A stretch of 64,000 bases of DNA, taken from contig JBAZQN010000007.1 of NCBI GenBank assembly GCA_041645165.1, forward strand, positions 8,318 to 72,317, in the 5' to 3' direction. This document shows positions 35,024 to 48,784 of this stretch, piece after piece. The position numbers were made by a program, and so were the translations under genes. This DNA comes from Patescibacteria group bacterium. GTDB lineage: Bacteria; Patescibacteriota; Patescibacteriia; 2-02-FULL-49-11. Positions within the stretch are counted from its first letter, which is position 1; each line of letters begins with the position of its first letter. The notes below the pieces were generated by a model that did not search any database, was not told the DNA's origin, and saw only the letters and a list, made by a program, of their open reading frames with translations.

Positions 35024-35610
35024 TTGCCATAATCAATTACAAGGCCGGCAATGTCGCGTCAGTGAAAAATGCGCTGGAACGGCTGGGGAGCGCGTGCACC
35101 GTCACATCCGATCCGGAGGAAATTCTATCCGCTGATGGCGTGATTTTCCCTGGCCAAGGCAGGGCAGGCGCCGCTCTGTCAGAACTGCAAAAGGCACGCA
35201 TTGATACCGTTATCCCTCGAATCACCAAGCCGTTTTTAGGCATTTGTTTAGGGATGCAGCTCCTTGGACGCTTTTCCGAAGAAGATAACACAAAATGTCT
35301 CGAGGTGTTTCAGGGTATAAGTCGCAAGTTTCCGCCGACGCTCAAAACCCCGCACCTCGGCTGGAATAAAGCAGAACTCACGAAAAAATCCCCCCTCACG
35401 GCGGGTATCACGAACGGATCGTACTTTTATTTCGTGCACTCATATTACATGGATGCTACGGAGGATCAAACGGCGGGGACAACGAGTTATGGTTTTGATT
35501 TCACTTCAATCATGCAAAAAGACAACTTTTTTGCCGTCCAGTTCCACCCAGAAAAATCCGGCGCGCAGGGCTTGCGATTGCTTACTAATTTTTACGAATT
35601 ATGCTTGTAA
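35020..35610 (+). CDS. hisH: imidazole glycerol phosphate synthase, glutamine amidotransferase subunit
   Basis: MIAIINYKAGN start and GICLGMQLL nucleophile-Cys context. It overlaps the hisB stop (ATGA). Confidence 0.8.
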   Translation: MIAIINYKAGNVASVKNALERLGSACTVTSDPEEILSADGVIFPGQGRAGAALSELQKARIDTVIPRITKPFLGICLGMQLLGRFSEEDNTKCLEVFQGISRKFPPTLKTPHLGWNKAELTKKSPLTAGITNGSYFYFVHSYYMDATEDQTAGTTSYGFDFTSIMQKDNFFAVQFHPEKSGAQGLRLLTNFYELCL

Positions 35611-37076
35611 TACCAGCCATTGATATTGTCGGCGGCAAATGCGTGCGCCTCACGCAGGGCGATTTTGCCAAAAGCACCCTCTACAGCGCGAATCCGGCTG
35701 ATGTCGCGAAAGATTTTGAACGTCAGGGTACGCGATTTCTGCATGTCGTGGATTTGGACGGCGCCAGAACAGGTTTTCCGGTGAATTCGGAAACAATTCT
35801 TTCCATCGCAAAATCGGTCGGCATTCCGATCCAAATCGGAGGAGGAATCCGCTCCTACGATCAGGCACGCGGGTATCTTGAGGGCGGCGTCTCGAAAATC
35901 GTTTTAGGCACCGCGGTTATTGAGAATCCAAAAATGCTAGAGCGCGTGTCCAGGGATTTTGGTAAGTCGCGTGTTACGGTCTCTGTCGACATAAAAGATG
36001 GAAACGCTGCCACTTGCGGGTGGCTGAAAAAGAGCACTGAAACCGCTCCTGCACTCATTGCCGCTCTCAAAAAAATAGGTATTGCGTCCGTGATAGTAAC
36101 CGACACTTCAAAAGACGGCCTGCTCCAGGGTCCGAATTTTGGTTTGACAAAGCTGTTTATTGATGAAGGTTTTGAGACTATCGCGGCCGGAGGCGTGACC
36201 TCTTTATCCGATATTAGGGAGTTTACCAAACTTGGCGCGTATGGCGTTATCGTGGGGAAAGCGATCTATGAAAATAAGATTGATATGCGAAACGCGCAGC
36301 GCGAAGCGGCGTACAAAAGCAGCTTGGCAAAAAGAATAATCCCGTGTTTGGATGTAAAAAATGGACGCGTGGTAAAGGGCACTTATTTTACGAATCTGCG
36401 CGATGCCGGCGATCCCGTTGCATTGGGAAAAAAATATTGCCAGCAAGGAGCCGATGAGCTCATTTTATTGGATATTGCGGCAACGTTAGAAAGCCGCAAA
36501 ACGTTTTGCGATCTGGTATCGGCAATAGCGCGTGAGATAAGCATACCATTTACCGTAGGCGGCGGGATCACCACCATAGAAGACATTCGTAAACTGCTGA
36601 GTGTCGGGGCAGACAAAGTTTCCATCGGGACCGCGGCAGTGAGAAATCCCCGTTTTATCAAAGATGCGGCCGCATATTTTGGTTCGCAATGCATTGTTAT
36701 TTCAATTGACGCAAAAAGGCAGAATGAAGACTTCATAATTTACATAAAGGGCGGGACGGAAAAAACAGAGATGGACGCCGTGGCTTTTTCCAAACAAATG
36801 GCGCAGTATGGCGCCGGCGAGCTTCTGGTAAATAGTTTGGATCGCGACGGGACCCAAAAAGGATTTGATGTTGAGCTGTTAAAAAGAGTTACCGACAGCG
36901 TATCCATACCGGTGATTGCTTCAAGCGGCGCAGGCTCAATGAGGGATTTCTTGACGGTCTTTGAAAAAACAAACGTAGATGCGGCTCTTGGCGCGAGCAT
37001 TTTTCATTCTCAAGAGAAGAGCATCATGGAACTTAAAAGGTTTTTATCCAGCAATAACATACCTATACGCCTATGA
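35601..37076 (+). CDS. hisA: HisA-HisF fusion (ProFAR isomerase plus IGP synthase cyclase subunit)
   Basis: The N-terminal half is HisA-like (LVIPAIDIVGGKCVRL). The C-terminal half is HisF-like (RIIPCLDVKNGRVVKG...). Both are (beta/alpha)8 barrels in one 491-aa ORF. Confidence 0.8.
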   Translation: MLVIPAIDIVGGKCVRLTQGDFAKSTLYSANPADVAKDFERQGTRFLHVVDLDGARTGFPVNSETILSIAKSVGIPIQIGGGIRSYDQARGYLEGGVSKIVLGTAVIENPKMLERVSRDFGKSRVTVSVDIKDGNAATCGWLKKSTETAPALIAALKKIGIASVIVTDTSKDGLLQGPNFGLTKLFIDEGFETIAAGGVTSLSDIREFTKLGAYGVIVGKAIYENKIDMRNAQREAAYKSSLAKRIIPCLDVKNGRVVKGTYFTNLRDAGDPVALGKKYCQQGADELILLDIAATLESRKTFCDLVSAIAREISIPFTVGGGITTIEDIRKLLSVGADKVSIGTAAVRNPRFIKDAAAYFGSQCIVISIDAKRQNEDFIIYIKGGTEKTEMDAVAFSKQMAQYGAGELLVNSLDRDGTQKGFDVELLKRVTDSVSIPVIASSGAGSMRDFLTVFEKTNVDAALGASIFHSQEKSIMELKRFLSSNNIPIRL

Positions 37077-38111: not shown

Positions 38112-40871
38112 TCAGGCGGCGCTCATTTTCGCAAATGCGATAAACAAAAGCGTGAACACGGCGGTCATAATAAAGGGCGCAAAATCGGAGAGATAGTCGC
38201 GCCGTGCTAATTGAAACCGTTTCAAAAGGAGCGAATTGGTAACGACCGAAACCGAGCTTAATGCCATCGCAAGGCCCGCAAGCTCCGGCTTGAGCGACAA
38301 GCCGATCCCTATGAATATCCGCGCCGCAACGGGAATACCGATGACGTTATAAAACAGGGCGAAGAACATGTTCTGTTTTACCTTGCTCATGGTCACGCGG
38401 CTTAAACGGATGGCATGCGCCACATCTTGCAGGTCATTCTTGATAATCACGACGCCGCCCGCTTCCATCGCCACATCAGTGCCGCTCCCCATGGCAATGC
38501 CCACATCCGCCTGTGCGAGCGCGGGCGAGTCATTGATGCCGTCGCCCACCATGGCGACCCTGCTCGCGCGCACGCGCCCCCGCCGATCCGTCTGGGGCAC
38601 GAGTTGGAGCTTCTTCACTGCTTCTGCTTTTTCGTGCGGCAATACCTCCGCTAAAATATTCTGTTCGGGAATGCCGAGTTGTTTGCCTATTGCCAAGGCA
38701 GTACGGCGATTGTCTCCCGTTATCATATAAATGGAAATCTTTGCATCTTTAAGCATGGACAGTGCGGCAAGCGACGTATCTTTGATCGTATCGGATACCG
38801 CAATAATGCCCAGCACTTTGTCTCTGCGCGCGAGCAGCATCGCGGTTTTGCCCGCAGTCTCAAGGCGCTCTACTCTGCGGCTAATTATTTCTAAGTTATG
38901 CCCCAACCCTGCCATAAGCGCGCGATTGCCAAAGAAATATTCTTGGCCTGCCACAGACCCTGAAACGCCCTTGCCGGGAATCGCTTTAAAATTCTCGACT
39001 TCTTGCATCTGCGCGCGTTCGGCTTCCGCGTAGGCGGTAATGCTCTCTGCAAGCGAGTGTTCAGAGCCTTTTTCAAGGCTGCCGGCAATCCCCAACAGTT
39101 CGTCTTCCCCTATCTCGCTTACTGAGACAAGGTCAGTTACTTCAGGAGTTCCTTTCGTGAGCGTGCCTGTTTTATCAAAGAGCACCGCATCAATTTTTGA
39201 AAGCGCTTCCAAGGGCTCCCCTCCTTTAATCAGTATGCCGAACTCCGCGCCCTTGCCGGTCCCCACCATCACCGCCGTCGGCGTGCCAAGGCCGAGCGCG
39301 CAGGGACACGCAATCACAATCACTGACACGAAGGTAAGGAGCGCGAACGTGAGAGAGGCACCTAGGGCAAAATACCATACCAGGAAAGAGAGGAGCGCCA
39401 AACCGATCACCGCAGGGACAAACCATGCGGAAATCCGGTCTGCATACGCCTGGATCGGCGCCTTTGACCCTTGCGCGTCTTCAATAAGCTGGATGATGTG
39501 TGAAAGAACCGTATCCGCGCCCACTTTCGAAGCGCGAAATTCAAAACTGCCGAGCTTGTTCATGGTCGCGCCGATGACCGTATCGCCCTCTTTCTTTTCC
39601 ACCGGCATGCTTTCGCCCGTGAGCATGGACTCGTCAACGGCAGAATACCCTTTGGTGATCACGCCATCGACAGGAATCTTCTCGCCCGGGCGCACCACCA
39701 CCGTATCGCCTGCCACGACCTCTTCCACGGGAATGTCCATAGCGGTTCCTTGGCGCAATACCCGGGCGGTTTTCGCCTGTAATCCCATGAGTTTCTTGAT
39801 CGCATCGCTGGTGCGGCCTTTCGCGCGCGCTTCCAGCCACTTCCCCATGAGCACGAAGGTAATGAGCAACACGCCGATTTCGAAATAGAGATTAGGAATC
39901 TTCTCGCCCAAAAGCGCCCACACAGAACCCGTGGCGAGCCAAAAGCGGACAAACTCGTAAAGGCTGTAGAAAAATGCGGTGCTCGTGCCGATCGCGATGA
40001 GGCTGTCCATGTTAAACGTGCCCATGCGCAGGCTAGACCACATGCCGCGGTAAAAACCCGCGCCGAGGATGAATTGCGCCGGCAGCGCCAGCATGAGAGA
40101 AATGGCGCCAATGGCAGGAAGGATCTGCTCACGGAAGGGAAGGCGGGAAGAAAAATCAAGCGCCATGAAATAGACGAGCGGCACGCTCAATATCACGCCA
40201 AAGATAAACTTGTCACGGTACGCGCGAATTTCCTTCTCGCGCTTTTTCCTATCAAATTCCTGGTCTTTGGGATTGCTTATCTCCGCCTTATATCCCGCGG
40301 CCTTCACCGCATCCTTTATCTTCTCCTCATTGAGCTTCCCCGCATCAAACACCACGCGCGCTTTTTCGGCGCCATAATTCACATGCGCCTCCCTGACCCC
40401 GGGAACTTTCCTTAATTTGCGCTCAATAAGATTCGCGCAGCTTGTGCAGTGCATGCCATAGATATTGAAACTTGCGCGCCTCTCTCCCTGTGCTCCTGCT
40501 GCCTGCGGCGCAGCCTGTGCGGGCTCTCCTTGCTCGCCTTCGCCTAAAGGCTTCGGCGAAGCAGGCCCGCCTTGCGGCAGGCCCGGCGAAGCAGGCTCAT
40601 ACGCGCTTAATCGTTCCAAAAGGGAGCTCATGGGCCGCAGCGTCTTCTGCAAAAATGAAGCAAATTCCTCTGCGTCCTGCTTGCCTTCCGGAAACTCTAT
40701 GGAACCATTTTTTTGCACCTCAATTTTCCCCACGAACTGGGGCGACTGGTCCTCTGAATGCCGTAAATTCCCTTCAGCGTGAATCGTGCTCTCAATGTGG
40801 AGCTTGAACGCGTGCGGGTCTTTTTGCGGCTTTAAATCCATGGGATGAGCCGCGCCATTTGAGGTATCCAT
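38112..40871 (-). CDS. copA: copper-translocating P1B-type ATPase
   Basis: HMA domain ([12 protein letters not shown]), CPC in TM6 ([15 protein letters not shown]), DKTGTLT, and the [10 protein letters not shown] hinge. The internal ATG (MDTSNG) is preferred so that it does not overlap copZ. Confidence 0.85.
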
Positions 40872-40878
40872 ATATTTA

Positions 40879-41097
40879 TTATGATAAAACGCCTTCGAGC
40901 GTATACGCGCCGAGCGATTCAATCTCTTTCTTTAAACGCTGCCAATCCAGATTCTCTTCGTGTTCAACCACCGTCTTCCCGGTGATAAAATCCACGGTGC
41001 ACGCGCGCACCCCCGGCACGTCGCGGCAGGCATCTTCGATGAGCGCTTTGCACGATGCGCAATGTGTCCCTTTGATGGTAATGGTCGAGGTAGCCAT
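40879..41097 (-). CDS. copZ: copper chaperone CopZ-like HMA domain protein
   Basis: 72 aa. [12 protein letters not shown] (MxCxxC). Confidence 0.7.
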
Positions 41098-41139
41098 ACT
41101 TGATTTATTAAAGTTGCTAAATAAATTATGTTAAGTCTC

Positions 41140-41808
41140 TCATTTTATAAGCCATACAATAAGCAAAAGGCCAGAAATAATCATGGAGAGCGCCATGATG
41201 AGCTTCACCGACGAAAAGGTGCGGGTATGCAGCTGTTGGCAGTACTGGAAAACAGCCTTGTTGCTCACCGAAACAAACAGCACGACGAGCGGAAGGACAA
41301 ACATGAAATTATACACAAGCAAATACCCCACTCCGCGCCAAAACGTCTCCTTGATGCTCAACAGGCTCACCGTGGCCAGATACACGCCGCCAGAACAGGG
41401 AAATTCACAGATACCCACCAACACCCCCAAGGTGATCGCTGACATGATGGTAATCTCCGGTTTCCATTTTGGAATTCGGCAGCGATTGAAGAACGAGGAG
41501 AGAAACGGTATCCGCACACGCGGCCATACATACTCCTTAAGGTGGAAAATCCCCAACGCGAGTATGAGGATCGCGGCTGCCCAGCCGAAGAAATCATGAA
41601 CGCCGAAGAGGTGCGCTACTTTCAGGATCCCCAGCCCTATGAGGAAATAGGTGACATAGGTGGCGGCGATATAGAAGAGGCCGAAACTTATAAAAAGCCT
41701 TTTCTCCAGCTTCAAGGAAAGCATCATCGCCAAATAGAACAGGAGCACGCCCACTGCGCAGGGATTGAATGAATCTATAAGGCCATTTATTAAAACAAGA
41801 GGAAGCAT
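41140..41808 (-). CDS. ccdA: CcdA/DsbD-family thiol-disulfide transporter (cytochrome c biogenesis protein transmembrane region)
   Basis: Six TM helices. DSFNPCAVGVL and CEFPCSGG Cys motifs. Confidence 0.7.
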   Translation of the reverse strand: MLPLVLINGLIDSFNPCAVGVLLFYLAMMLSLKLEKRLFISFGLFYIAATYVTYFLIGLGILKVAHLFGVHDFFGWAAAILILALGIFHLKEYVWPRVRIPFLSSFFNRCRIPKWKPEITIMSAITLGVLVGICEFPCSGGVYLATVSLLSIKETFWRGVGYLLVYNFMFVLPLVVLFVSVSNKAVFQYCQQLHTRTFSSVKLIMALSMIISGLLLIVWLIK

Positions 41809-41941
41809 ACATTAAGATAAGCATTTCGTGGCGTATACTGGCGTTATGCTGGCGTAAACTGGCTTCTATACCCCATAGATGCGGAAGAACGCAGATAATT
41901 ACGCAGAATAACGCAGAAATTAAAAACTCCGGTACGATAAA

Positions 41942-42439
41942 TTATTCGACATCTGCGGTGAATTTCAGGTTCACCAAGGGTCTCAAAGGGTCATTCGTCC
42001 TGAAAACCACCTCCCGCGTGACACGACCTTTTACCGGCATGATCGAAGGCTGATAGGTGACTCTTACCACTGCTTCGCCGCGAGGCGATATTTCCCCGCG
42101 CCATTGCGGGTTGCGATGCATGGAAAACCGAGGGCTTTCCCTCCCGCCGATGATAAACTGCGCAAACGTGCAATCGCATGAGGTGATCACATCATTGATG
42201 ACGAGCGGCTTCTCGCCCCGATTTGTTAATCGTATCTCTTTGACTTTTGTTTCTTCCAATTTCATGGTACCAAAATCAAATACGGTTTCATCTATGAGCA
42301 AGCGGGGAGCGGGGCTCTCTTGGGTTGTGTACTGGGGAATAGGGGCTCCCCGCTGGCTGAGCGCTGCAGCGAGCACGCCGCCCATGACCATAATAATCAA
42401 TATGATAATGCCGGCCATGATAGGATCAATCTTCTTCAT
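41942..42439 (-). CDS. DUF1573 domain protein (membrane-anchored)
   Basis: PLVINDVITSCDCTFA matches the DUF1573 SCGCT-type motif. Start taken at the internal MKKIDP. Confidence 0.55.
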   Translation of the reverse strand: MKKIDPIMAGIIILIIMVMGGVLAAALSQRGAPIPQYTTQESPAPRLLIDETVFDFGTMKLEETKVKEIRLTNRGEKPLVINDVITSCDCTFAQFIIGGRESPRFSMHRNPQWRGEISPRGEAVVRVTYQPSIMPVKGRVTREVVFRTNDPLRPLVNLKFTADVE

Positions 42440-42440
42440 A

Positions 42441-43472
42441 TCACTCTTTCTTAAGCAGGCCATCAATAATTTGCTGGAACGCCTCATAGGGAAGGGCGCC
42501 GCTTACCAGCTGGCCGTTCACAAACGTCGCGGGAGTGCCGTTCACCCCTTTGCGCTGCCCTTCATCAAAATCACTCTGGACCTTTGATGCGTATTTTCCC
42601 GCATCGAGACAGCTATTAAATTGCGCTGCGTTAAGCCCCGTATCTTGCGCCCATTTCTTAAATTTATCCAGGCTGTAACCGCTTGGCTGGTTTTCGAAAA
42701 GGATGTCGTGATACTCCCAAAATTTCCCTTGCTCGTCGGCGCACTCTGACGCTTCAGCGGCCTTCTGCGCATTGGGATGGAAACTTAAGGGAAAGTGCTT
42801 ATATACAAGCCTTACTTTTCCCGCATAATCGCTTAATATCTTTTTCAGGGTGGGATAATGCCGCTCGCAAAAAGGGCATTCAAAATCAGAAAACTCAACA
42901 AACGTAATAGGCGCGTCGAACTCTCCCCGCACATGATTATCCTCTGCGACCTCAAACGTCTGCAGGGGAAGCGGATTATTCGCGGGCGCGGGGGCAGGCG
43001 GAAGGATGGCGCCTGCCGCTTGCTTATTTTGCGCCTGTACGGCTTTTTGTCCCTGCGCTGTGTCATTTGTCCGCGATGCGCGGAGAAGCTTTACTCCCAA
43101 TACCACATTGAGAGACAGAGAAAGCAGAGAGACGCCCGTGAGAAAACCAAGGAGGAATGGCGCTTTCCCATTACGCGCGGGGATAAACACGCGCTGCGAG
43201 GGCGCAGATTTTGTCTCTTTCATTTCTTCCTTCACTTCCCTTATCATCTCCACCGCATAATCCCCCGCTCCCCTTACCGTTTTTTCAATATCCTGTTCGC
43301 TGATTTTGCTCTCGTCATACACCACCGCAAGCTTCTGGGATTCGTGGTTCGCTTTCGCTCTTACGACCCCTTCCTTTTTCCCTAAAAGATCCTCGAGAGC
43401 GTCAGCGTTCGCGCTCCCGCGCATGCCTGCCTGTGCAGACAGGCCTTTGATATGGAATGTTGCTTTTTTCAT
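42441..43472 (-). CDS. DsbA-family thiol:disulfide oxidoreductase with an N-terminal HMA-like (Cys-less) domain
   Basis: The N-terminal ferredoxin-like ATFHIKGLSAQAGMRGSANADALEDL segment lacks CxxC. It is followed by a TM segment and a thioredoxin-fold domain with CPFC. Confidence 0.6.
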   Translation of the reverse strand: MKKATFHIKGLSAQAGMRGSANADALEDLLGKKEGVVRAKANHESQKLAVVYDESKISEQDIEKTVRGAGDYAVEMIREVKEEMKETKSAPSQRVFIPARNGKAPFLLGFLTGVSLLSLSLNVVLGVKLLRASRTNDTAQGQKAVQAQNKQAAGAILPPAPAPANNPLPLQTFEVAEDNHVRGEFDAPITFVEFSDFECPFCERHYPTLKKILSDYAGKVRLVYKHFPLSFHPNAQKAAEASECADEQGKFWEYHDILFENQPSGYSLDKFKKWAQDTGLNAAQFNSCLDAGKYASKVQSDFDEGQRKGVNGTPATFVNGQLVSGALPYEAFQQIIDGLLKKE

Positions 43473-43695
43473 AGGTGGAATATAAACATGATAATTGTAT
43501 TCATTCGCGAGGGCGTGTCACAGTTCGCCGTGAGGATTGTCTGAGGCAGTCCCGATAAGCTATTGACTGATGAGGATTGGAGGCTTATCGGGACGGTCTC
43601 CCGACCGCGTCGGGAGAGCCGAGTTCCGCAACAAGAACTGGGGTGCGCTCGAGCAGAATAGTACCAATTCATAGTGTAAAATTAATATTAATCTT

Positions 43696-45432
43696 CTATT
43701 GAGGGACCCCGCAGCTGCCGCTTCCCCCGCCTCCGCAGCCGCATCCGCTCGCGCCTGAAGGCACCGGGGAATTATCGCTCAAAGCCGCGCCAGAAAGAGT
43801 GGGGGCGTCCGCGCGGTCAGCGCTCACCGCTTCGATAACGCCAGAAATCATGCCCATCCAGCAGCTGAATTTATATTTCCCGGCTTTGGGCACCGTGAAT
43901 TCCTTAACCGATGTCGTGCCGGGAGTAAGGTCTATCTGCCCGCTAAACAAGCCGCGCGCGAGCACCGCATTGGTGCAGCCGCTGGTGCCCGTATCAGTAA
44001 TCTCCCACCTCACGGGCACGCCTGCCCTCACCTTGAAATAGTTAGGCTTATACCCTTGCGAGGACGCTTCCATCTTGATAACCTGCACGCCGTTTACCAT
44101 GGCGGGAAGGTCTTTATCGTCTGTCTTCGCGGCGCCGTTCGTAGCGGAAGTGGCCGCTTTAAGCGAGAAATTACTTAATGAGGGAGCTCCCAGCGCGTTT
44201 AACTGCGAATTAATATTGAAGAGAGCGAAAAAGAGCACCACCACTCCCGCGACCTTAAGGAAGGAGCTCGACAGATGCGGCCTTGAAGCAAATGTGACGC
44301 TCGAGAGGCCAATCATGAGGAGAGGCAGTGCGGTGCCCAAGGCAAACGAGAACATGATAAGCCCGCCTTGAAGAGCGCTGCCGGAGAGGAGCGCCAATCC
44401 CTGCGCGGTGATGGTAAATCCGCAGGGAAGGAAAAAAGTAAACGCGCCCATCAAGGATGGGAGGAAACGCCCTTTAAATTTCGATTCGTCCGCAATGCGC
44501 CGGGTAATGGATTTTGGCAAAGTAAACTGGAATTTCTGAAATGCCTTGACTCCCAGCATTTGGAGGCCCAAAAGCAGCATGAATCCTGAAACGCCAATCA
44601 CGAGCAAGGAGCTAAAGGTTAAGGAAATTCTCAACTGGCTCCCCACGGCCCCGAGCACCGCGCCGAAAAAGGCGTAGGAAGCCATCCGTCCCGCGTTGAA
44701 AAGGAGATGCGGCTGGAGTTTAGAGATGAGCGTTGCCTCGCGCGCGTAAAGCTCATGCCACTGTTTCGACATTGACAGGATGATGCCGCCTACCAAGGCC
44801 GCGCAGGTGGAAAGGCCCGCAAGCAACCCGAGGAGAAAAAAAGAAGGCAGGGATGAACGCGCGCTCACATTGACGAGGGCGCCGATACCTAACTTATTAA
44901 ACAGTATGAAAACGGCAATAATGGCAAGAGAAATGCCGATAACCGCACCCGCATTGCTCTTCTTTTGAACCTCGGCTTCGCGGGTTGGATGGTTAAAAAA
45001 CCGATATCCATCTTGCTTAAATAATTGATCCAACTCTGCGATATTTGGTTTTTTGTCTCGGTATTCTATTACTACCTCTCCCTTATTGGTTGAGGCTTCG
45101 ACTGATCGTATGCCATCCAATTTAAGCAGCTTTTTTTCTATAAGCACTTCGCAGCTCGCGCAGTGCATGCCTTTAACATAATAGGTGTGCTCTTGCGTTA
45201 GTTGAGCGCTCTGCGCAGGGTCTGCTATGACGCGGTAGCCAAGGCTCCTCAAAGCCTGAATAATTTCATCCTGCGCGATACTCTCTTTGTCAAATTCGAC
45301 AGACGCCTCTCCTGTCTGCTCATTGACGAGTACGCTCTGCACGCCTGCCAGCACCTCAATTTCTGTTTCAATGCGTATTTTATCATCAATGGATTCCACG
45401 CCCTCAAGATGAACCTTTATAGTATGGAACAT
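43696..45432 (-). CDS. two HMA domains, a DsbD_2-type transmembrane domain and a C-terminal cupredoxin-like domain with a Gly/Cys-rich tail
   Basis: YYVKGMHCASCEVLIE (MxCxxC), membrane Cys motifs LAGLSTCAAL and FFLPCGFT, the C-terminal beta-sandwich FKVRAGVPVRWEITDTGTSGCTNA...FSCWMGMISGVIE, and the tail GCGCGGGGSGSCG. Confidence 0.55.
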   Translation of the reverse strand: MFHTIKVHLEGVESIDDKIRIETEIEVLAGVQSVLVNEQTGEASVEFDKESIAQDEIIQALRSLGYRVIADPAQSAQLTQEHTYYVKGMHCASCEVLIEKKLLKLDGIRSVEASTNKGEVVIEYRDKKPNIAELDQLFKQDGYRFFNHPTREAEVQKKSNAGAVIGISLAIIAVFILFNKLGIGALVNVSARSSLPSFFLLGLLAGLSTCAALVGGIILSMSKQWHELYAREATLISKLQPHLLFNAGRMASYAFFGAVLGAVGSQLRISLTFSSLLVIGVSGFMLLLGLQMLGVKAFQKFQFTLPKSITRRIADESKFKGRFLPSLMGAFTFFLPCGFTITAQGLALLSGSALQGGLIMFSFALGTALPLLMIGLSSVTFASRPHLSSSFLKVAGVVVLFFALFNINSQLNALGAPSLSNFSLKAATSATNGAAKTDDKDLPAMVNGVQVIKMEASSQGYKPNYFKVRAGVPVRWEITDTGTSGCTNAVLARGLFSGQIDLTPGTTSVKEFTVPKAGKYKFSCWMGMISGVIEAVSADRADAPTLSGAALSDNSPVPSGASGCGCGGGGSGSCGVPQ

Positions 45433-45470
45433 AAGATTATGGTATCCCGCGCGATATGCGCGGGTGCAGT

Positions 45471-45785
45471 TTATTTGTTAAACAACTTGGTCACCTTTAA
45501 TATTTCCTGGGTCATCTCCTGCTTCCTCTTCTCGTTTTTTGTCACCATCGCGGTCTTAAAACAAGAGTTGAGATGATTCTCCATCAGCATCTGGTGGGCG
45601 GACTTTAAAAGCCCCACCACCGCTAAATTCTGCTGCATGACGTCGATGCAGTAATGGTTGCCCTCGACCATCTGGATGATCTTTGATAAAAGGCTGTGGG
45701 CTTTTTTGAAATTAATCAGGGTCTTCTCTTTGTGGCTTTTCATAGGTGTAGCGATTACGTGGGTATATAGAGTATTAAAAGGCAA
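45471..45785 (-). CDS. csoR: CsoR/RcnR-family metal-sensing transcriptional repressor
   Basis: HYCIDVMQQ...HQ...HL...C residues in the CsoR W-X-Y-Z positions. Confidence 0.7.
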   Translation of the reverse strand: MPFNTLYTHVIATPMKSHKEKTLINFKKAHSLLSKIIQMVEGNHYCIDVMQQNLAVVGLLKSAHQMLMENHLNSCFKTAMVTKNEKRKQEMTQEILKVTKLFNK

Positions 45786-45875
45786 ATGCTATACCTATAC
45801 CCCAGGTATAGGTCTATCCCACAGGATAGCAAATCACCGTAGTGCTGTCAATAACCCACAAAGGAGAACACGAGA

Positions 45876-46154
45876 TTAATGGCAACAGCCGGAATCGCCT
45901 TTCCCCTCGCTGCCTGATTTCGGCCTTTCGTCCTCTTTGCGCGTGCCATGCGCGCCATGCCTCCGCATCCTGCCGAGATGGAAGGCGATGAGAACAATCG
46001 CGGGAATGAACCATACCCAGCTTCTCTCTCCGCCGGACGTGTTGATCCGGCCGCTAAAGAGCACGAGGAACATGGGCAGGAGAATGCACCCTGCCATCAT
46101 CCACCACATGTGTTTTGAATCATGGTTATTGTGATCGGAGTGCGACATACACAT
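45876..46154 (-). CDS. small His/Cys-rich membrane protein (DUF2933-like)
   Basis: MSHSDHNNHDSKHMWWMM..., a TM helix, and a C-terminal CCH. Confidence 0.35.
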   Translation of the reverse strand: MCMSHSDHNNHDSKHMWWMMAGCILLPMFLVLFSGRINTSGGERSWVWFIPAIVLIAFHLGRMRRHGAHGTRKEDERPKSGSEGKGDSGCCH

Positions 46155-46171
46155 AAATAAAAAGATAAATT

Positions 46172-46885
46172 TTATCTACTGCTAAATAGAGAACTTTTTA
46201 GTTCTGGTTTCCGTTGGGGAACCCATGCGGGCGTTGTTCGCGCGTAGGTTCCCCACGCTTCGCCGAACGTCAATCGTGCTTCTTCCTCTTCCTTTTTCGC
46301 CAAGCGCACATACCTCCAGGTCAGGATGGGAAACATGATCAACGTAAGAATCGTCGGCCATTGCAGGAGGAATCCCACCATAATCAAAATGAATGCGGTA
46401 TATTGAGGATGGCGTATGCGCGCGTACGGACCGGTCATTGCCAGCGCGTGTTCACGCTGCGCCTGATAGAGCACCTTCCACGCATCCGAGAGAAGACCGA
46501 AACCGATGAAGATGAGTATAATACTCACGATATGGAATGGTCCTATGTGAGGATTCGCGCGCCAGCCGAAGAGCGTTTCCAGGAGATGGCCTGAGTCGTG
46601 GGAAAAGAAGTTGACGCCAGGGAACCTGCTCGTGAGCCACCCTGAGAACAAGTAGATCGTGAGAGGAAAGCCGTACATCTCCGTAAACAGCGCGACGATG
46701 AATGCCGCGAATCCTCCCAAGGTGCGCCAGTCTCGCGAAGTTTTCGGTTTCACGAAACTCGCCGCGAAGGCAATCAGCAGGACGGAGGCGATGATAACGA
46801 GCGGCCATCTGCCATAGTCCTCGAATAGTGTATTCATGTGGGTTGAGATTATGTGTGTGGTTGCCGCGATAATGTCGACTCGCAT
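46172..46885 (-). CDS. ICMT/PEMT-family membrane methyltransferase
   Basis: RIRHPQYTAFILIMVGFLLQWPTIL and the C-terminal E...W pattern of isoprenylcysteine carboxyl methyltransferase-like proteins. Confidence 0.55.
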   Translation of the reverse strand: MRVDIIAATTHIISTHMNTLFEDYGRWPLVIIASVLLIAFAASFVKPKTSRDWRTLGGFAAFIVALFTEMYGFPLTIYLFSGWLTSRFPGVNFFSHDSGHLLETLFGWRANPHIGPFHIVSIILIFIGFGLLSDAWKVLYQAQREHALAMTGPYARIRHPQYTAFILIMVGFLLQWPTILTLIMFPILTWRYVRLAKKEEEEARLTFGEAWGTYARTTPAWVPQRKPELKSSLFSSR

Positions 46886-46923
46886 CGCCGCATAAATTCA
46901 GTGTTGATTTTTTAACTCAACGT

Positions 46924-47640
46924 CTACGAATAGAGATATTTGTACAAGAGCTGTGCTTGGTCAACGATTGCCTGAAATACGCTTACTTCATCTCCCAGAT
47001 CAGAATTCATCGTCTTCGGGAACACCAGATATCCTTGCACCGGCATCTCCTGATCGGTGGTGGGGATTACGCAGAGTTCGCCAATCTCGCGAACGTTCTT
47101 TTTTTGTTCTCTTGTCTGGATAAGTTCCCGATTGGAGACGCTTGTTTTGAGGAGCAGAAAATGTCGCGACGTATACACGAATTCTTTCACGGTTTGCTCG
47201 TGCGCGCTCTCCACAAACCTGAACATCCCCCACTCGGCCTTAGCGACCGACGTGACAGCTACGGCGAGCAACCGCTGAAACATGTCTTTTCGAGCCTTCT
47301 CGCTCCCTTTCTCGGTCGCAAGGAGATCGCTCGTGAGTTTCTTGAGAAGCGGCAGTCTGCGGTTCACCACGCCGATGTACTCAAACGCGTCAATGAGCTT
47401 TTCTTGGGTGATACGCCCCTCGTGCTCGATCTGCCGCACATGTTCTTCTTTTCGTTTCACATCGCGCCGATGGAGCACATATACTCCATAGGCGAGACCG
47501 AATGCCAGCAAGGACACGACTGACTCTGCGTATTCTTCTGGAAGGGCAAACACATGGCCGGTAATCACATGCGGCTCTCCCAAAATCACCAGAAACAATA
47601 TGAAAAATGCCATTTTCATGGTAAGAGTCATGGCCGTCAA
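46924..47640 (-). CDS. hypothetical membrane-anchored protein
   Basis: N-terminal TM followed by a soluble domain with no recognised motifs. Confidence 0.35.
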   Translation of the reverse strand: MTAMTLTMKMAFFILFLVILGEPHVITGHVFALPEEYAESVVSLLAFGLAYGVYVLHRRDVKRKEEHVRQIEHEGRITQEKLIDAFEYIGVVNRRLPLLKKLTSDLLATEKGSEKARKDMFQRLLAVAVTSVAKAEWGMFRFVESAHEQTVKEFVYTSRHFLLLKTSVSNRELIQTREQKKNVREIGELCVIPTTDQEMPVQGYLVFPKTMNSDLGDEVSVFQAIVDQAQLLYKYLYS

Positions 47641-47642
47641 TA

Positions 47643-48032
47643 TTAAAGAGCGTCAATCACACCCTTGAGGATCGTCTCAACTTCTTGGGCAAGCGGCTCC
47701 AGCGATACATTGTTAATAACGCTAAACGCAATAGTCGGACGCTGTGCAGATACGACCACTGAACCATCATCCCGTTCATAGACGATCACGTTGCAGGGCA
47801 GGAGCAGTCCGATTTCTTCTTCCCTCTGCAGCGCCTTATATGCCCTAGGCGGATTGCATGCGCCCAAGATGCGATAGCGCCTAAACTCAACGCCAAGTTT
47901 TTCCTTTAAGGTCTTCTGCACGTCAATGTCCGTGAGTATGCCGAATCCTTGCGCCTTGAGCGCCGTGACTGTTTTCTCAACCGCTTCCTCAAAAGGAATG
48001 GTAAGGTGCTTTGAGTATCCGTAAGTAGACAT
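47643..48032 (-). CDS. DUF302 domain protein
   Basis: GFGILTDIDVQKTLKEKLG...YRILGACNPPRAY fits the DUF302 consensus. Confidence 0.65.
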   Translation of the reverse strand: MSTYGYSKHLTIPFEEAVEKTVTALKAQGFGILTDIDVQKTLKEKLGVEFRRYRILGACNPPRAYKALQREEEIGLLLPCNVIVYERDDGSVVVSAQRPTIAFSVINNVSLEPLAQEVETILKGVIDAL

Positions 48033-48039
48033 AGGATTA

Positions 48040-48264
48040 TTAGTTAATCTCTTTCTTTATTTTCTCGAATTCCTCTCTTGTGATTTCTCCCTTTGCATAC
48101 CGCTCTTTCAGAATATCAAGCGCTGGTTTCCCTTGCGGCTGACCCCTTCCGCTCATCTCACGGATAAGCCAGGCAATCAGGAGAACCACCCCTCCCCAGA
48201 AGAGGAGCATCATGACGCCGCCCATAAACCACCCAAACATATTACCGGCTGCATAGTTCCACAT
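48040..48264 (-). CDS. SHOCT-domain small membrane protein
   Basis: TM helix plus C-terminal LKERYAKGEITREEFEKIKKEI (SHOCT motif). Confidence 0.6.
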   Translation of the reverse strand: MWNYAAGNMFGWFMGGVMMLLFWGGVVLLIAWLIREMSGRGQPQGKPALDILKERYAKGEITREEFEKIKKEIN

Positions 48265-48352
48265 AAGAAATTGAATAAATTAAATAAAACAAAAATACGC
48301 CTCTATAACTGCGAGGGCAAAGCCTTTCTATAAACTTATAGAAAGGTTGCCT

Positions 48353-48784
48353 CTATATGGAAGCGTATACGCGGGGATTGAGCACCCCGCCGGCATAAGC
48401 GCGCACGAGATACGAATACCACTTGGAGTCTCTCACGAAACGTTCATAGAGCAAGAACCGCCTACTAGGAGGGCTCTCCGCAACCATCGGCGTAAGGTGC
48501 CACACGACGATTGCGATGAACATGGTGAGGCTCATCAAGAGCAGGGTCACCCACAGAGGGGCGCTCGCGAATAACGCGCGCCACTCCATGAGGTGGCTGC
48601 CCACATTCATGGGACAGAAAGATGACTTATGCTGCGGCGCAAAGGGGCACCCTGACATGCCCTGCTCGTCCATGCGCATGGTGAGATTTGCTCCTACGGA
48701 AACCAACACAAGCGCCAGCGCCGCTCCCGCAACCAACAGGCGAAATGCACTGTGTTTTTGAACCGATAATTTCATAATCCTCAT
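48353..48784 (-). CDS. hypothetical membrane protein
   Basis: Signal/TM segments. Paired Cys (CPFAPQHKSSFCPM). No family assignment. Confidence 0.35.
   Translation of the reverse strand: MRIMKLSVQKHSAFRLLVAGAALALVLVSVGANLTMRMDEQGMSGCPFAPQHKSSFCPMNVGSHLMEWRALFASAPLWVTLLLMSLTMFIAIVVWHLTPMVAESPPSRRFLLYERFVRDSKWYSYLVRAYAGGVLNPRVYASI

Follow-up and report, generated by a model that had tools for sequence, protein, structure and literature searches.

A probable CsoR-controlled copper operon of Patescibacteria with a candidate Cu(I)-relay membrane protein and an envelope thiol cassette

In a 64-kb stretch of DNA from an uncultured Patescibacteria bacterium (contig JBAZQN010000007.1; "the window" below means this whole stretch), the minus strand between positions 38112 and 46154 carries eight genes that combine copper handling with thiol-redox functions, among them a gene for a 578-amino-acid (aa) membrane protein that is the main subject of this report. 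Behind a small His-rich gene, the order in the direction of transcription is csoR, the 578-aa gene, genes for a DsbA-like, a DUF1573 and a CcdA-like protein, copZ and copA (Table 1). All eight open reading frames (ORFs) were confirmed in the ORF listing and its translations, and Pfam and NCBIfam scans show that the domains assigned in a first-pass annotation largely hold. Judged by the lengths of homologues and the positions of ATG codons, the likely true starts lie at 45743 for csoR (90 aa), 42439 for the DUF1573 gene (165 aa) and 40874 for copA. Every part is of a known domain type and the operon is a copper-resistance operon; two accessory modules sit between csoR and copZ/copA, and both recur in such operons across Patescibacteria. 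Specifically, the order csoR, HMA-DsbD_2-cupredoxin, DsbA, DUF1573, CcdA-like, CopA is repeated on independent contigs, three of which have the whole order found here, so the arrangement is not a chance juxtaposition. The locus is very probably a CsoR-controlled copper-detoxification operon with an envelope thiol module, and it probably detoxifies silver as well as copper.

To place the operon among its relatives, we use counts from 80 related loci around homologues of the 578-aa protein, many of which end early at contig ends. The regulator at the head of the operon matches PF02583 (E = 6e-14, 52.6 bits against a cut-off of 22.8) and aligns with Mycobacterium tuberculosis CsoR 2HH7 (E = 1.4e-10), with the YC(I/V)DVM and NHL-x-x-CF motifs kept (here NHL-N-S-CF) and the Cys-His-Cys Cu(I) triad, Cys36, His61 and Cys65 of the M. 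tuberculosis protein, retained. Just after the -10 element of the near-consensus promoter-like site upstream of csoR lies the palindrome ATACC-N3-GGTAT, which occurs a single time in the window against 0.12 occurrences expected; no second CsoR operator was found elsewhere in the window. TACC..GGTA palindromes also stand upstream of csoR in 30 of the 46 related loci that have this gene. Because CsoR keeps its Cys-His-Cys ligands and the promoter carries a palindrome, copper-dependent derepression of the operon is well founded by analogy. At the other end of the operon, CopA scores 593.9 bits with TIGR01511 (cut-off 397) and 638.4 bits with TIGR01525 (cut-off 346), and its translation contains ACPCALG (the CPC motif), FYNVIG (YN), MALSSVS (M-x-x-SS) and FDKTGTLT (DKTGT). 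These features, together with CopZ and the redox cassette considered below, bear out the earlier description of a copper island that couples sensing, chaperoning and export to extracytoplasmic thiol redox chemistry. As a separate observation, the N-terminus of CopA has an extension of about 135 aa before its single HMA domain, with several His residues, a Pro/Gly/Gln-rich linker and no family match.

Table 1. Features of the copper locus, with positions counted from the first letter of the window
Feature	Positions	Strand	Basis or remark
Upstream same-strand genes: ICMT-like methyltransferase, unknown 238-aa protein, DUF302, SHOCT, 143-aa Cys-motif membrane protein	46172..48784	-	
92-aa His-rich two-helix membrane protein ending CCH	45876..46154	-	Upstream of csoR promoter
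csoR promoter-like site (TTGACA, 17 nt, TATCCT with TG), then inverted repeat CTATACCTGGGGTATAGGTATAG, putative CsoR operator	45789..45851	-	Promoter scan and sequence
Palindrome part of putative CsoR operator	45789-45811	-	
csoR, Cu(I)-sensing repressor	45471..45743	-	90 aa from ATG 45743; listed ORF begins TTG 45785; related-locus homologues 90 aa
578-aa protein: Cys-less HMA, CopZ-type HMA, seven transmembrane helices (TM0 + DsbD_2 core), CupA-type cupredoxin, Cys/Gly tail	43696..45432	-	Pfam, alignment, AlphaFold2
HMA-like domain 1 (residues 1-70), predicted cytoplasmic	45223..45432	-	No cysteines; absent from some family members
HMA domain 2 (residues 80-146), GMHCASC, predicted cytoplasmic	44995..45195	-	Pfam, NCBIfam, alignment
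Membrane region (residues 157-413): TM0 + six-helix DsbD_2 core, Cys210 (STCAAL), Cys337 (LPCGFT)	44194..44964	-	Pfam, AlphaFold2 helices, Lys/Arg counts
CupA-type cupredoxin (residues 446-536), predicted extracytoplasmic, ligands C486, C524, M526, M528	43825..44097	-	phmmer, Foldseek
C-terminal Gly/Cys tail (GCGCGGGGSGSCG)	43699..43761	-	Near-invariant C564, C566, C574
Two tandem hairpins without U-tract, in 223-nt spacer 43473-43695	43530..43630	-	Folding energy -39.7 kcal/mol, z -4.5
343-aa protein: degenerate Cys-less cytoplasmic HMA, one transmembrane helix, extracytoplasmic DsbA/ScsC-like thioredoxin-fold domain (CPFC)	42441..43472	-	
Membrane-anchored DUF1573 protein (165 aa), TSCDCT motif	41942..42439	-	PF07610
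CcdA-like six-helix membrane protein (222 aa), NPC and CEFPCSGG motifs	41140..41808	-	
copZ, 72-aa HMA chaperone (GTHCASC)	40879..41097	-	HMA E 1.5e-10
copA, Cu(I)-exporting ATPase, P1B-1 motifs, one HMA	38112..40874 (listed ORF 38112-40922)	-	

The 578-aa protein joins three kinds of module in one chain. The HMA model of Pfam matches two stretches of it, residues 198-404 match DsbD_2 (PF13386; E = 2e-30, 106.7 bits, cut-off 24.9), the same core reaches DsbD_TM (PF02683; 44 bits, cut-off 27.1), and the C-terminal part matches Cupredoxin_1 (PF13473; E = 8e-8, 32.7 bits, cut-off 27). In an alignment of 46 family members, residues C91, C94, C210, C337, C486, C524, M526 and M528 are invariant and the tail cysteines C564, C566 and C574 are nearly so. 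C210 and C337 fall in the first and fourth core helices, which places one conserved cysteine in each three-helix half, and the core helices carry a further set of invariant polar or Met residues (N246, Q291, M292, T340, T342, Q344, N406, N408 and Q410). The first HMA contains a cysteine in no aligned member and is missing altogether from some of them. Thus, the domain order HMA-HMA-DsbD_2-cupredoxin with a Gly/Cys tail that had been proposed for this protein stands, and what has to be given up is the idea of two cytoplasmic MxCxxC domains, since only the second HMA has the cysteines (C91 and C94). The AlphaFold2 (AF2) model, with a predicted local distance difference test score (pLDDT) of 70, has seven membrane helices, and Lys and Arg residues number 16 on the proposed inner loops against 3 on the outer. 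From these seven helices and this charge bias we predict that the HMA domains lie inside the cell and the cupredoxin and tail outside, which agrees with the earlier picture of an inner HMA and an outer cupredoxin on either side of a two-Cys membrane core.

The cupredoxin domain resembles one particular copper protein. By phmmer, its significant sequence matches in the PDB are limited to pneumococcal CupA (2MRY/4F2E, E = 3e-5) and the metal-binding domain (MBD) of CopA (4F2F, E = 4e-5), and in a Foldseek comparison with the AF2 model CupA 4F2E is the best cupredoxin match, with a target-normalised TM-score of 0.88 and a root-mean-square deviation of 1.2 A over 94 columns at 28% identity. In the alignment, SGC pairs with CupA Cys74 and SCWMGM with CupA Cys111-x-Met113-x-Met115; the four CupA ligands Cys74, Cys111, Met113 and Met115 therefore correspond to C486, C524, M526 and M528. 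In CupA these residues build a binuclear Cu(I) cluster, in which a bis-thiolate site of high affinity is joined by one rich in Met (PMC7558416). Because the domain here has the two Cys and two Met ligands of CupA and no His, we favour a Cu(I)-handling module over a blue-copper electron carrier. The first-pass annotation had named a cupredoxin devoid of copper ligands, together with expression that does not respond to copper, as the result that would count against its proposal; what the alignment gives instead is the complete CupA set. A blue-copper or CuA electron-transfer site was considered and ruled out: His ligands are lacking, and the domain is matched best by CupA and the CopA MBD, not by plastocyanin or CuA proteins. 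The site is widespread. A search of the full library with the cupredoxin alone returned 1,614 representatives at E <= 1e-3; among the best 149, the C-x-M-x-M motif is present in 144 and the PCGF membrane motif also in 85.

Variants of these modules turned up in and beside the main family. In some family members (P0086, P0097, P0118, P0353 and P0390) the CupA-like domain is doubled or tripled in tandem, and every copy has a C...CWMGM set. Cluster c60 (loci L065, L071 and L076) consists of separate CupA-like cupredoxins, about 145 aa long, with an N-terminal anchor and GC...SCSMGM, and cluster c58 (L042, L067 and L073) is an unrelated polytopic protein of about 140-180 aa that ends in a CGCGC...GGSCG tail like that of the 578-aa protein.

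The 578-aa architecture is itself a large family, with more than 2,286 homologous clusters at 90% identity and at least 551 GTDB species representatives, which are mainly Patescibacteria with some Actinomycetota and one metagenome-assembled genome (MAG) of Thermodesulfovibrionales. It keeps company with copper genes: CsoR accompanies the homologue in 46 of the 80 related loci and CopA in 63, usually in the order csoR, 578-aa homologue, copA, and in about nine loci (L002, L003, L007, L010, L014, L065, L070, L076 and L078) the place of CsoR directly upstream is taken by a BlaI/CopY-type repressor (PF03965) and a membrane partner that resembles BlaR1, which puts the same cargo under another type of regulator. 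A separate CopZ is found in just two of the 80, which suggests that the fused HMA usually stands in for CopZ. In one lineage the protein is split into a DsbD_2-cupredoxin protein and an adjacent 73-aa HMA gene, and this arrangement speaks for the HMA as a functional partner of the core. Rarity of the 578-aa and HMA-DsbA fusions was entertained and is ruled out by the counts of clusters, species and relatives; both fusions, which had been called unusual, are recurrent families in Patescibacteria.

Databases offer another identity for the protein. An NCBI entry from a Patescibacteria MAG that is 100% identical to it is named "sulfite exporter TauE/SafE family protein" and JGI uses the same name, so that the gene might encode a sulfite or organosulfonate exporter of TauE/SafE type whose copper neighbourhood is incidental. 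However, the Pfam match is to DsbD_2 and no TauE family appears in the Pfam and NCBIfam scans at E <= 0.01, two copper-binding domains with invariant ligands flank the core, and the position between a copper repressor and CopA is conserved in dozens of species. We consider the database name hardly credible as a description of function.

Other genes recur in these neighbourhoods. Between the 578-aa homologue and CopA there are FtrD-like (PF10080) membrane proteins (cluster c4, 17 loci) and small, anchored Cys-rich proteins with no Pfam match (cluster c9, 9 loci); the loci concerned include L002, L007, L010, L015, L017, L019, L025, L030, L034, L036, L038, L042, L043, L047, L071 and L080. In addition, nine loci with Patescibacteria-style cop operons (L006, L008, L020, L037, L044, L056, L066, L078 and L080) bear titles such as "uncultured Gammaproteobacteria" or "Pseudomonadales bacterium", which may reflect mislabelled MAGs.

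Downstream of the 578-aa gene lie the DsbA-like, DUF1573 and CcdA-like genes. The 343-aa protein matches Thioredoxin_4/DSBA (E = 2e-31), and its weak HMA match (E = 1e-3) stays under the Pfam cut-off. Its DsbA-like domain finds actinobacterial DsbA 4PWP (E = 3e-21), Bacillus subtilis BdbD (E = 4e-17) and ScsC 4GXZ (E = 2e-11) in the PDB; ScsC structures match at E = 2e-11 to 8e-11, and actinobacterial DsbA and BdbD are closer. Among long relatives (>=295 aa) from the related loci, most keep G(M/I)(H/Y/N)CxxC in the HMA, whereas the local copy has an insertion and no cysteines. This indicates that HMA-transmembrane-DsbA is a recurrent family in which the Cys-less state is a local loss. The DUF1573 protein matches PF07610 (E = 6e-13, 49 bits, cut-off 26.1), and TSC-x-CT, Met107 and Trp113 are invariant in its alignment. 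There are DUF1573 proteins that are selenoproteins, with a U-G-C motif (PMC9312934).

The 222-aa membrane protein had been labelled ccdA. Its own Pfam scan does not sustain this name, giving a match to SfLAP only (E = 3e-4) and no significant DsbD match, and a profile search of the family against PDB sequences found no match. Support comes from its relatives: 9 of 31 reach DsbD_TM (best E = 2e-6), several of the 413 homologues, a family of the candidate phyla radiation, are named CcdA by their sources, and C17, C110, C134 and C138 are invariant, with Pro-Cys motifs at C17 (NPC) and C138 (FPC). The AF2 model (pLDDT 81) has CcdA 5VKV as its top Foldseek match, with a probability of 0.99 and a weak fit (E = 0.026, TM-score 0.42). 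The CcdA-like identity therefore rests on relatives, source names and this top structural match, and we use the name in that qualified sense. Kinship between the 222-aa family and the DsbD_2 core of the 578-aa family was also tried and rejected (hhalign probability 2.4%, not significant). In every context examined, the CcdA-like gene directly follows a DUF1573 gene, and the two lie within an operon for CsoR and a P-type ATPase.

These genes suggest a direction for the redox chemistry. No DsbB or VKOR partner was found within the annotated part of the window (38-50 kb), and a CcdA-like carrier of reductant is present. By analogy with ScsC, the DsbA-like protein is for this reason more likely kept reduced, and the cassette would most likely send reducing power outward rather than form disulfides; the "oxidation module" of the first-pass annotation thus gives way to a reducing one. 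In the Scs system ScsB keeps ScsC reduced, and the system gives copper tolerance (PMC3322552).

Taken together, these observations lead to a model in which a rise in Cu(I) would cause CsoR to leave the DNA and so derepress the operon. The HMA of the 578-aa protein would pick up cytosolic Cu(I), which it could exchange with CopZ and CopA, and Cu(I) would then move by thiolate ligand exchange onto the Cys210/Cys337 pair, cross the membrane by alternating access as in CcdA, and reach the outward CupA-like site and the tail, where it would be held away from exposed envelope thiols. In parallel, the CcdA-like carrier would export reducing equivalents to the DUF1573 C-x-C protein and the DsbA/ScsC-like protein, which may keep exofacial thiols reduced or re-shuffle copper-catalysed disulfides, much as ScsB and ScsC do. 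This whole statement, with a derepressed operon, a two-sided Cu(I) relay and a thiol-maintenance cassette, strikes us as a little short of an even call.

The critical step is the passage of Cu(I) itself through the DsbD_2 core, a tentative proposal that we nonetheless favour over electron transfer. Both soluble domains of the protein are Cu(I) modules with invariant ligands, methionines included, and in most loci the protein takes the place of CopZ. An HMA always accompanies the core, in the same chain or next to it, even though DsbD pathways have no use for one, and invariant Asn, Gln, Thr and Met residues are abundant in the core helices. PF13386 is presumably the "UreH-like" domain of InterPro, named after a putative nickel transporter, an assumption we use as a lead only. 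UreH is a nickel-transporter family (PMC2667541), and the DsbD family lies within the LysE superfamily, which consists mainly of metal-ion exporters (PMC4608589).

Several considerations weigh against a relay. The DsbD/CcdA family is, to our knowledge, one of electron carriers and not of ion carriers, and we know of no DsbD_2 protein for which copper transport has been shown. The transmembrane cysteines occupy the position of the redox-active pair of CcdA, which electron transfer would fit equally well, and a passive relay is without an evident energy source. Pneumococcal CupA, the sole characterised relative of the outer domain, faces the cytoplasm, so that an outward orientation departs from it; the topology of the 578-aa protein is itself a prediction, the AF2 model (pLDDT 70) is only moderately confident, and the family is known from sequence comparison and predicted models. 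Finally, copper-responsive expression of the operon is deduced solely from the repressor and the operator.

The main alternative is an electron conduit, in which the core would pass electrons from cytoplasmic thioredoxin or from the HMA CxxC, by way of Cys210 and Cys337, to the outward CupA-like Cys pair and the tail. The reduced outward cysteines would pick up the Cu(I) that CopA expels, or would reduce Cu(II), the HMA would separately act as a tethered chaperone of CopA, and the protein would amount to a CueP/ScsB-like pair in one chain. The core does match DsbD_2 and DsbD_TM with its one cysteine per three-helix half, every DsbD-family protein characterised so far carries two electrons and with them reduces an extracytoplasmic domain, either fused to it or on a partner (PMC4608589; PMC3322552), a bis-thiolate site outside the cell would require reduction, and CupA reduces Cu(II) in vitro through its S1 cysteines (PMC7558416). 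Yet an electron conduit leaves the invariable presence of a CopZ-type HMA, fused or adjacent, unaccounted for, as no known DsbD pathway requires one; it also meets Met ligands whose invariance suggests Cu(I) binding over redox chemistry, conserved polar residues in the core helices that are more typical of ion pathways, and an operon that already encodes a separate CcdA-like carrier. We regard it as a serious alternative that is rather to be doubted than accepted.

The relay has a counterpart that would run inwards. In the mercury systems, the metal is handed along the cysteine pairs of MerP, MerT and MerA by an established mechanism, and the 578-aa protein has a three-station thiol layout like that of MerP, MerT and the N-terminal HMA of MerA. 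NCBIfam also gives weak MerTP matches, which stem from its HMA alone. A protein that works in this manner would capture Cu(I) at the cupredoxin, pass it inward by the transmembrane cysteines and deliver it through the HMA to CopZ and CopA or to a cytoplasmic sink, either clearing the cell surface or supplying cuproproteins. Such import is improbable: the membrane core shares no homology with MerT, the gene is regulated together with that of an exporter, by a repressor that excess Cu(I) releases, none of the nearby genes encodes a detoxifying enzyme of the cytoplasm, and taking in a toxic metal during excess would be futile cycling. A mercury system as such was also examined as a candidate and rejected, as the NCBIfam MerTP, MerP and MerA matches involve the HMA only and fall far under their cut-offs.

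We return to the outward Cu(I) relay for its stronger form, in which the DsbD_2 core truly translocates Cu(I), from a CopZ-like domain through an alternating-access Cys pair to an outward CupA-like site, and the DUF1573 proteins are dedicated extracytoplasmic clients of the CcdA-like carrier in copper defence. This combined claim is speculative, and we hold it with considerable reserve. If the translocator is real, it would constitute a copper transporter class of its own, without kinship to P-type ATPases, RND pumps or CopB/CopD and common in Patescibacteria and some Actinomycetota, in which the DsbD fold, otherwise a carrier of electrons, has been turned to metal transport; if the DUF1573 proteins are clients of the carrier, this would be the first role for a large domain of unknown function.

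The genes and elements around this core are best viewed in relation to the csoR promoter. The 92-aa His-rich gene had been counted within an eight-gene island unit, but its place is upstream of both the promoter and the operator of csoR, and for that reason it is probably outside the csoR transcription unit, though part of a wider metal neighbourhood. Pfam and NCBIfam scans of its product gave no match, and it has six homologous clusters in all. A 70% identical copy occupies the same position in the closest relative, L090, where genes for SHOCT and for a Cys-motif membrane protein of 143 aa precede it; other relatives adjoin ICMT, YHS, DUF5676 and CsoR genes, with ICMT-like neighbours in L088 and L089.

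The five same-strand genes farther upstream probably belong to the wider metal island. In L090 the 143-aa protein and SHOCT are kept next to the 92-aa gene and csoR, and the DUF302, 238-aa and ICMT genes are absent; the stretch 46172-48032 (minus strand), which holds these three between SHOCT and the 92-aa gene, is thus an insertion or deletion within the island relative to L090. SHOCT genes occur in seven related loci. The 143-aa two-helix membrane protein (48353-48784, minus strand) has GCPF...FCPMN motifs, belongs to no Pfam family and is matched at the corresponding place in L090 by a copy 73% identical to it; it may add another metal-binding component to the island. On the other side, convergent with copA, lies a hisB-hisH-hisAF-hisIE cluster in which a 491-aa ORF (35601-37076, plus strand) with two His_biosynth (PF00977) domains is apparently a HisA-HisF fusion.

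Within the operon, the spacer between the 578-aa and DsbA-like genes contains two stable hairpins, one of which pairs 18-nt arms around a 22-nt loop, whereas the other has a 9-bp stem and a 3-nt loop; a promoter-like site lies just downstream of them at 43494-43521. Because the same junction measures only 20 nt in L090, this element is a local insertion, perhaps an RNA-stability element or a small repeat. An Rfam scan of the whole window gave no match.

These results have implications beyond the locus. Literature searches that combined DsbD_2 with cupredoxin, DUF1573 with copper and Patescibacteria with CsoR, or that used PF13386, returned no description of the 578-aa family, and the searchable literature yielded neither its size and conserved operon position, nor a CupA-type site outside streptococci, on the outer face of the membrane and fused to a DsbD-type core, nor a DUF1573-CcdA-like module in copper operons. 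With the CupA-like outer domain, a copper site that had seemed restricted to a few streptococci is now seen in hundreds of species, on what is predicted to be the opposite face of the membrane, and the 578-aa protein may represent an undescribed way to move copper or to hold it outside the cell. It raises the testable question of whether a DsbD-type two-cysteine core can carry a metal ion rather than electrons, and the pairing of DUF1573 with a CcdA-like protein in copper operons provides a first functional handle on DUF1573. Patescibacteria genomes are tiny, yet many keep the 578-aa gene beside CopA, so the gene is probably important for surviving copper.

Among known systems, the operon can be compared with the canonical csoR-copZ-copA operons of B. 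subtilis and M. tuberculosis (cso), with which it shares a Cys-His-Cys CsoR, a GC-centred palindromic operator, CopZ and a P1B-1-type CopA. It differs from them by four extra genes between csoR and copZ, and most of its relatives do without a separate copZ and have the fused HMA instead. The copY-cupA-copA operon of Streptococcus pneumoniae follows the same plan of a repressor, a membrane-attached cupredoxin Cu(I) protein and CopA, built here around a much larger protein, and the cupredoxin of the 578-aa protein matches the fold of CupA and has an identical ligand set, Cys...Cys-x-Met-x-Met. Despite these similarities, CupA has one N-terminal anchor and is cytoplasmic, whereas here the domain forms the C-terminal end of a DsbD_2 protein with seven helices and should, by prediction, face outward; pneumococcal CopA has a cupredoxin MBD, whereas the local CopA has an HMA only; and the 578-aa family, found in at least 551 species, is usually CsoR-regulated, with BlaI/CopY-type repressors in about nine related loci.

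Two proteins of the operon resemble the DsbD/CcdA transporters: the 578-aa core has the DsbD_2/DsbD_TM fold assignment with one conserved cysteine per three-helix repeat, and the 222-aa protein has CcdA 5VKV as its top structural match. The flanks of the 578-aa core are HMA and CupA-like cupredoxin domains instead of thioredoxin-like or Ig-like redox domains, so that its fused outer domain is a cupredoxin and not the thioredoxin fold of a DsbD partner. No cytochrome c maturation genes were seen in the annotated part of the window. The Scs system is likewise a copper-tolerance locus that pairs a DsbD-superfamily carrier of reductant with a DsbA-fold protein, and ScsC matches the local DsbA-like domain. 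In contrast to ScsB, however, the local carrier is a 222-aa, six-helix CcdA-like protein without the alpha and gamma domains or any soluble domain; the local DsbA-like protein is closer to Gram-positive DsbA/BdbD and carries a cytoplasmic HMA and a transmembrane anchor; and the DUF1573 C-x-C protein, the constant partner of the local carrier, has nothing like it in Scs. Finally, if the favoured relay holds, the 578-aa protein would share with MerP/MerT/MerA the passing of a metal between the cysteine pairs of an outer domain, a membrane helix pair and a cytoplasmic HMA, with a membrane part that is not a MerT homologue, a cupredoxin rather than an HMA as the outer domain, copper as the metal and, presumably, the outward direction.

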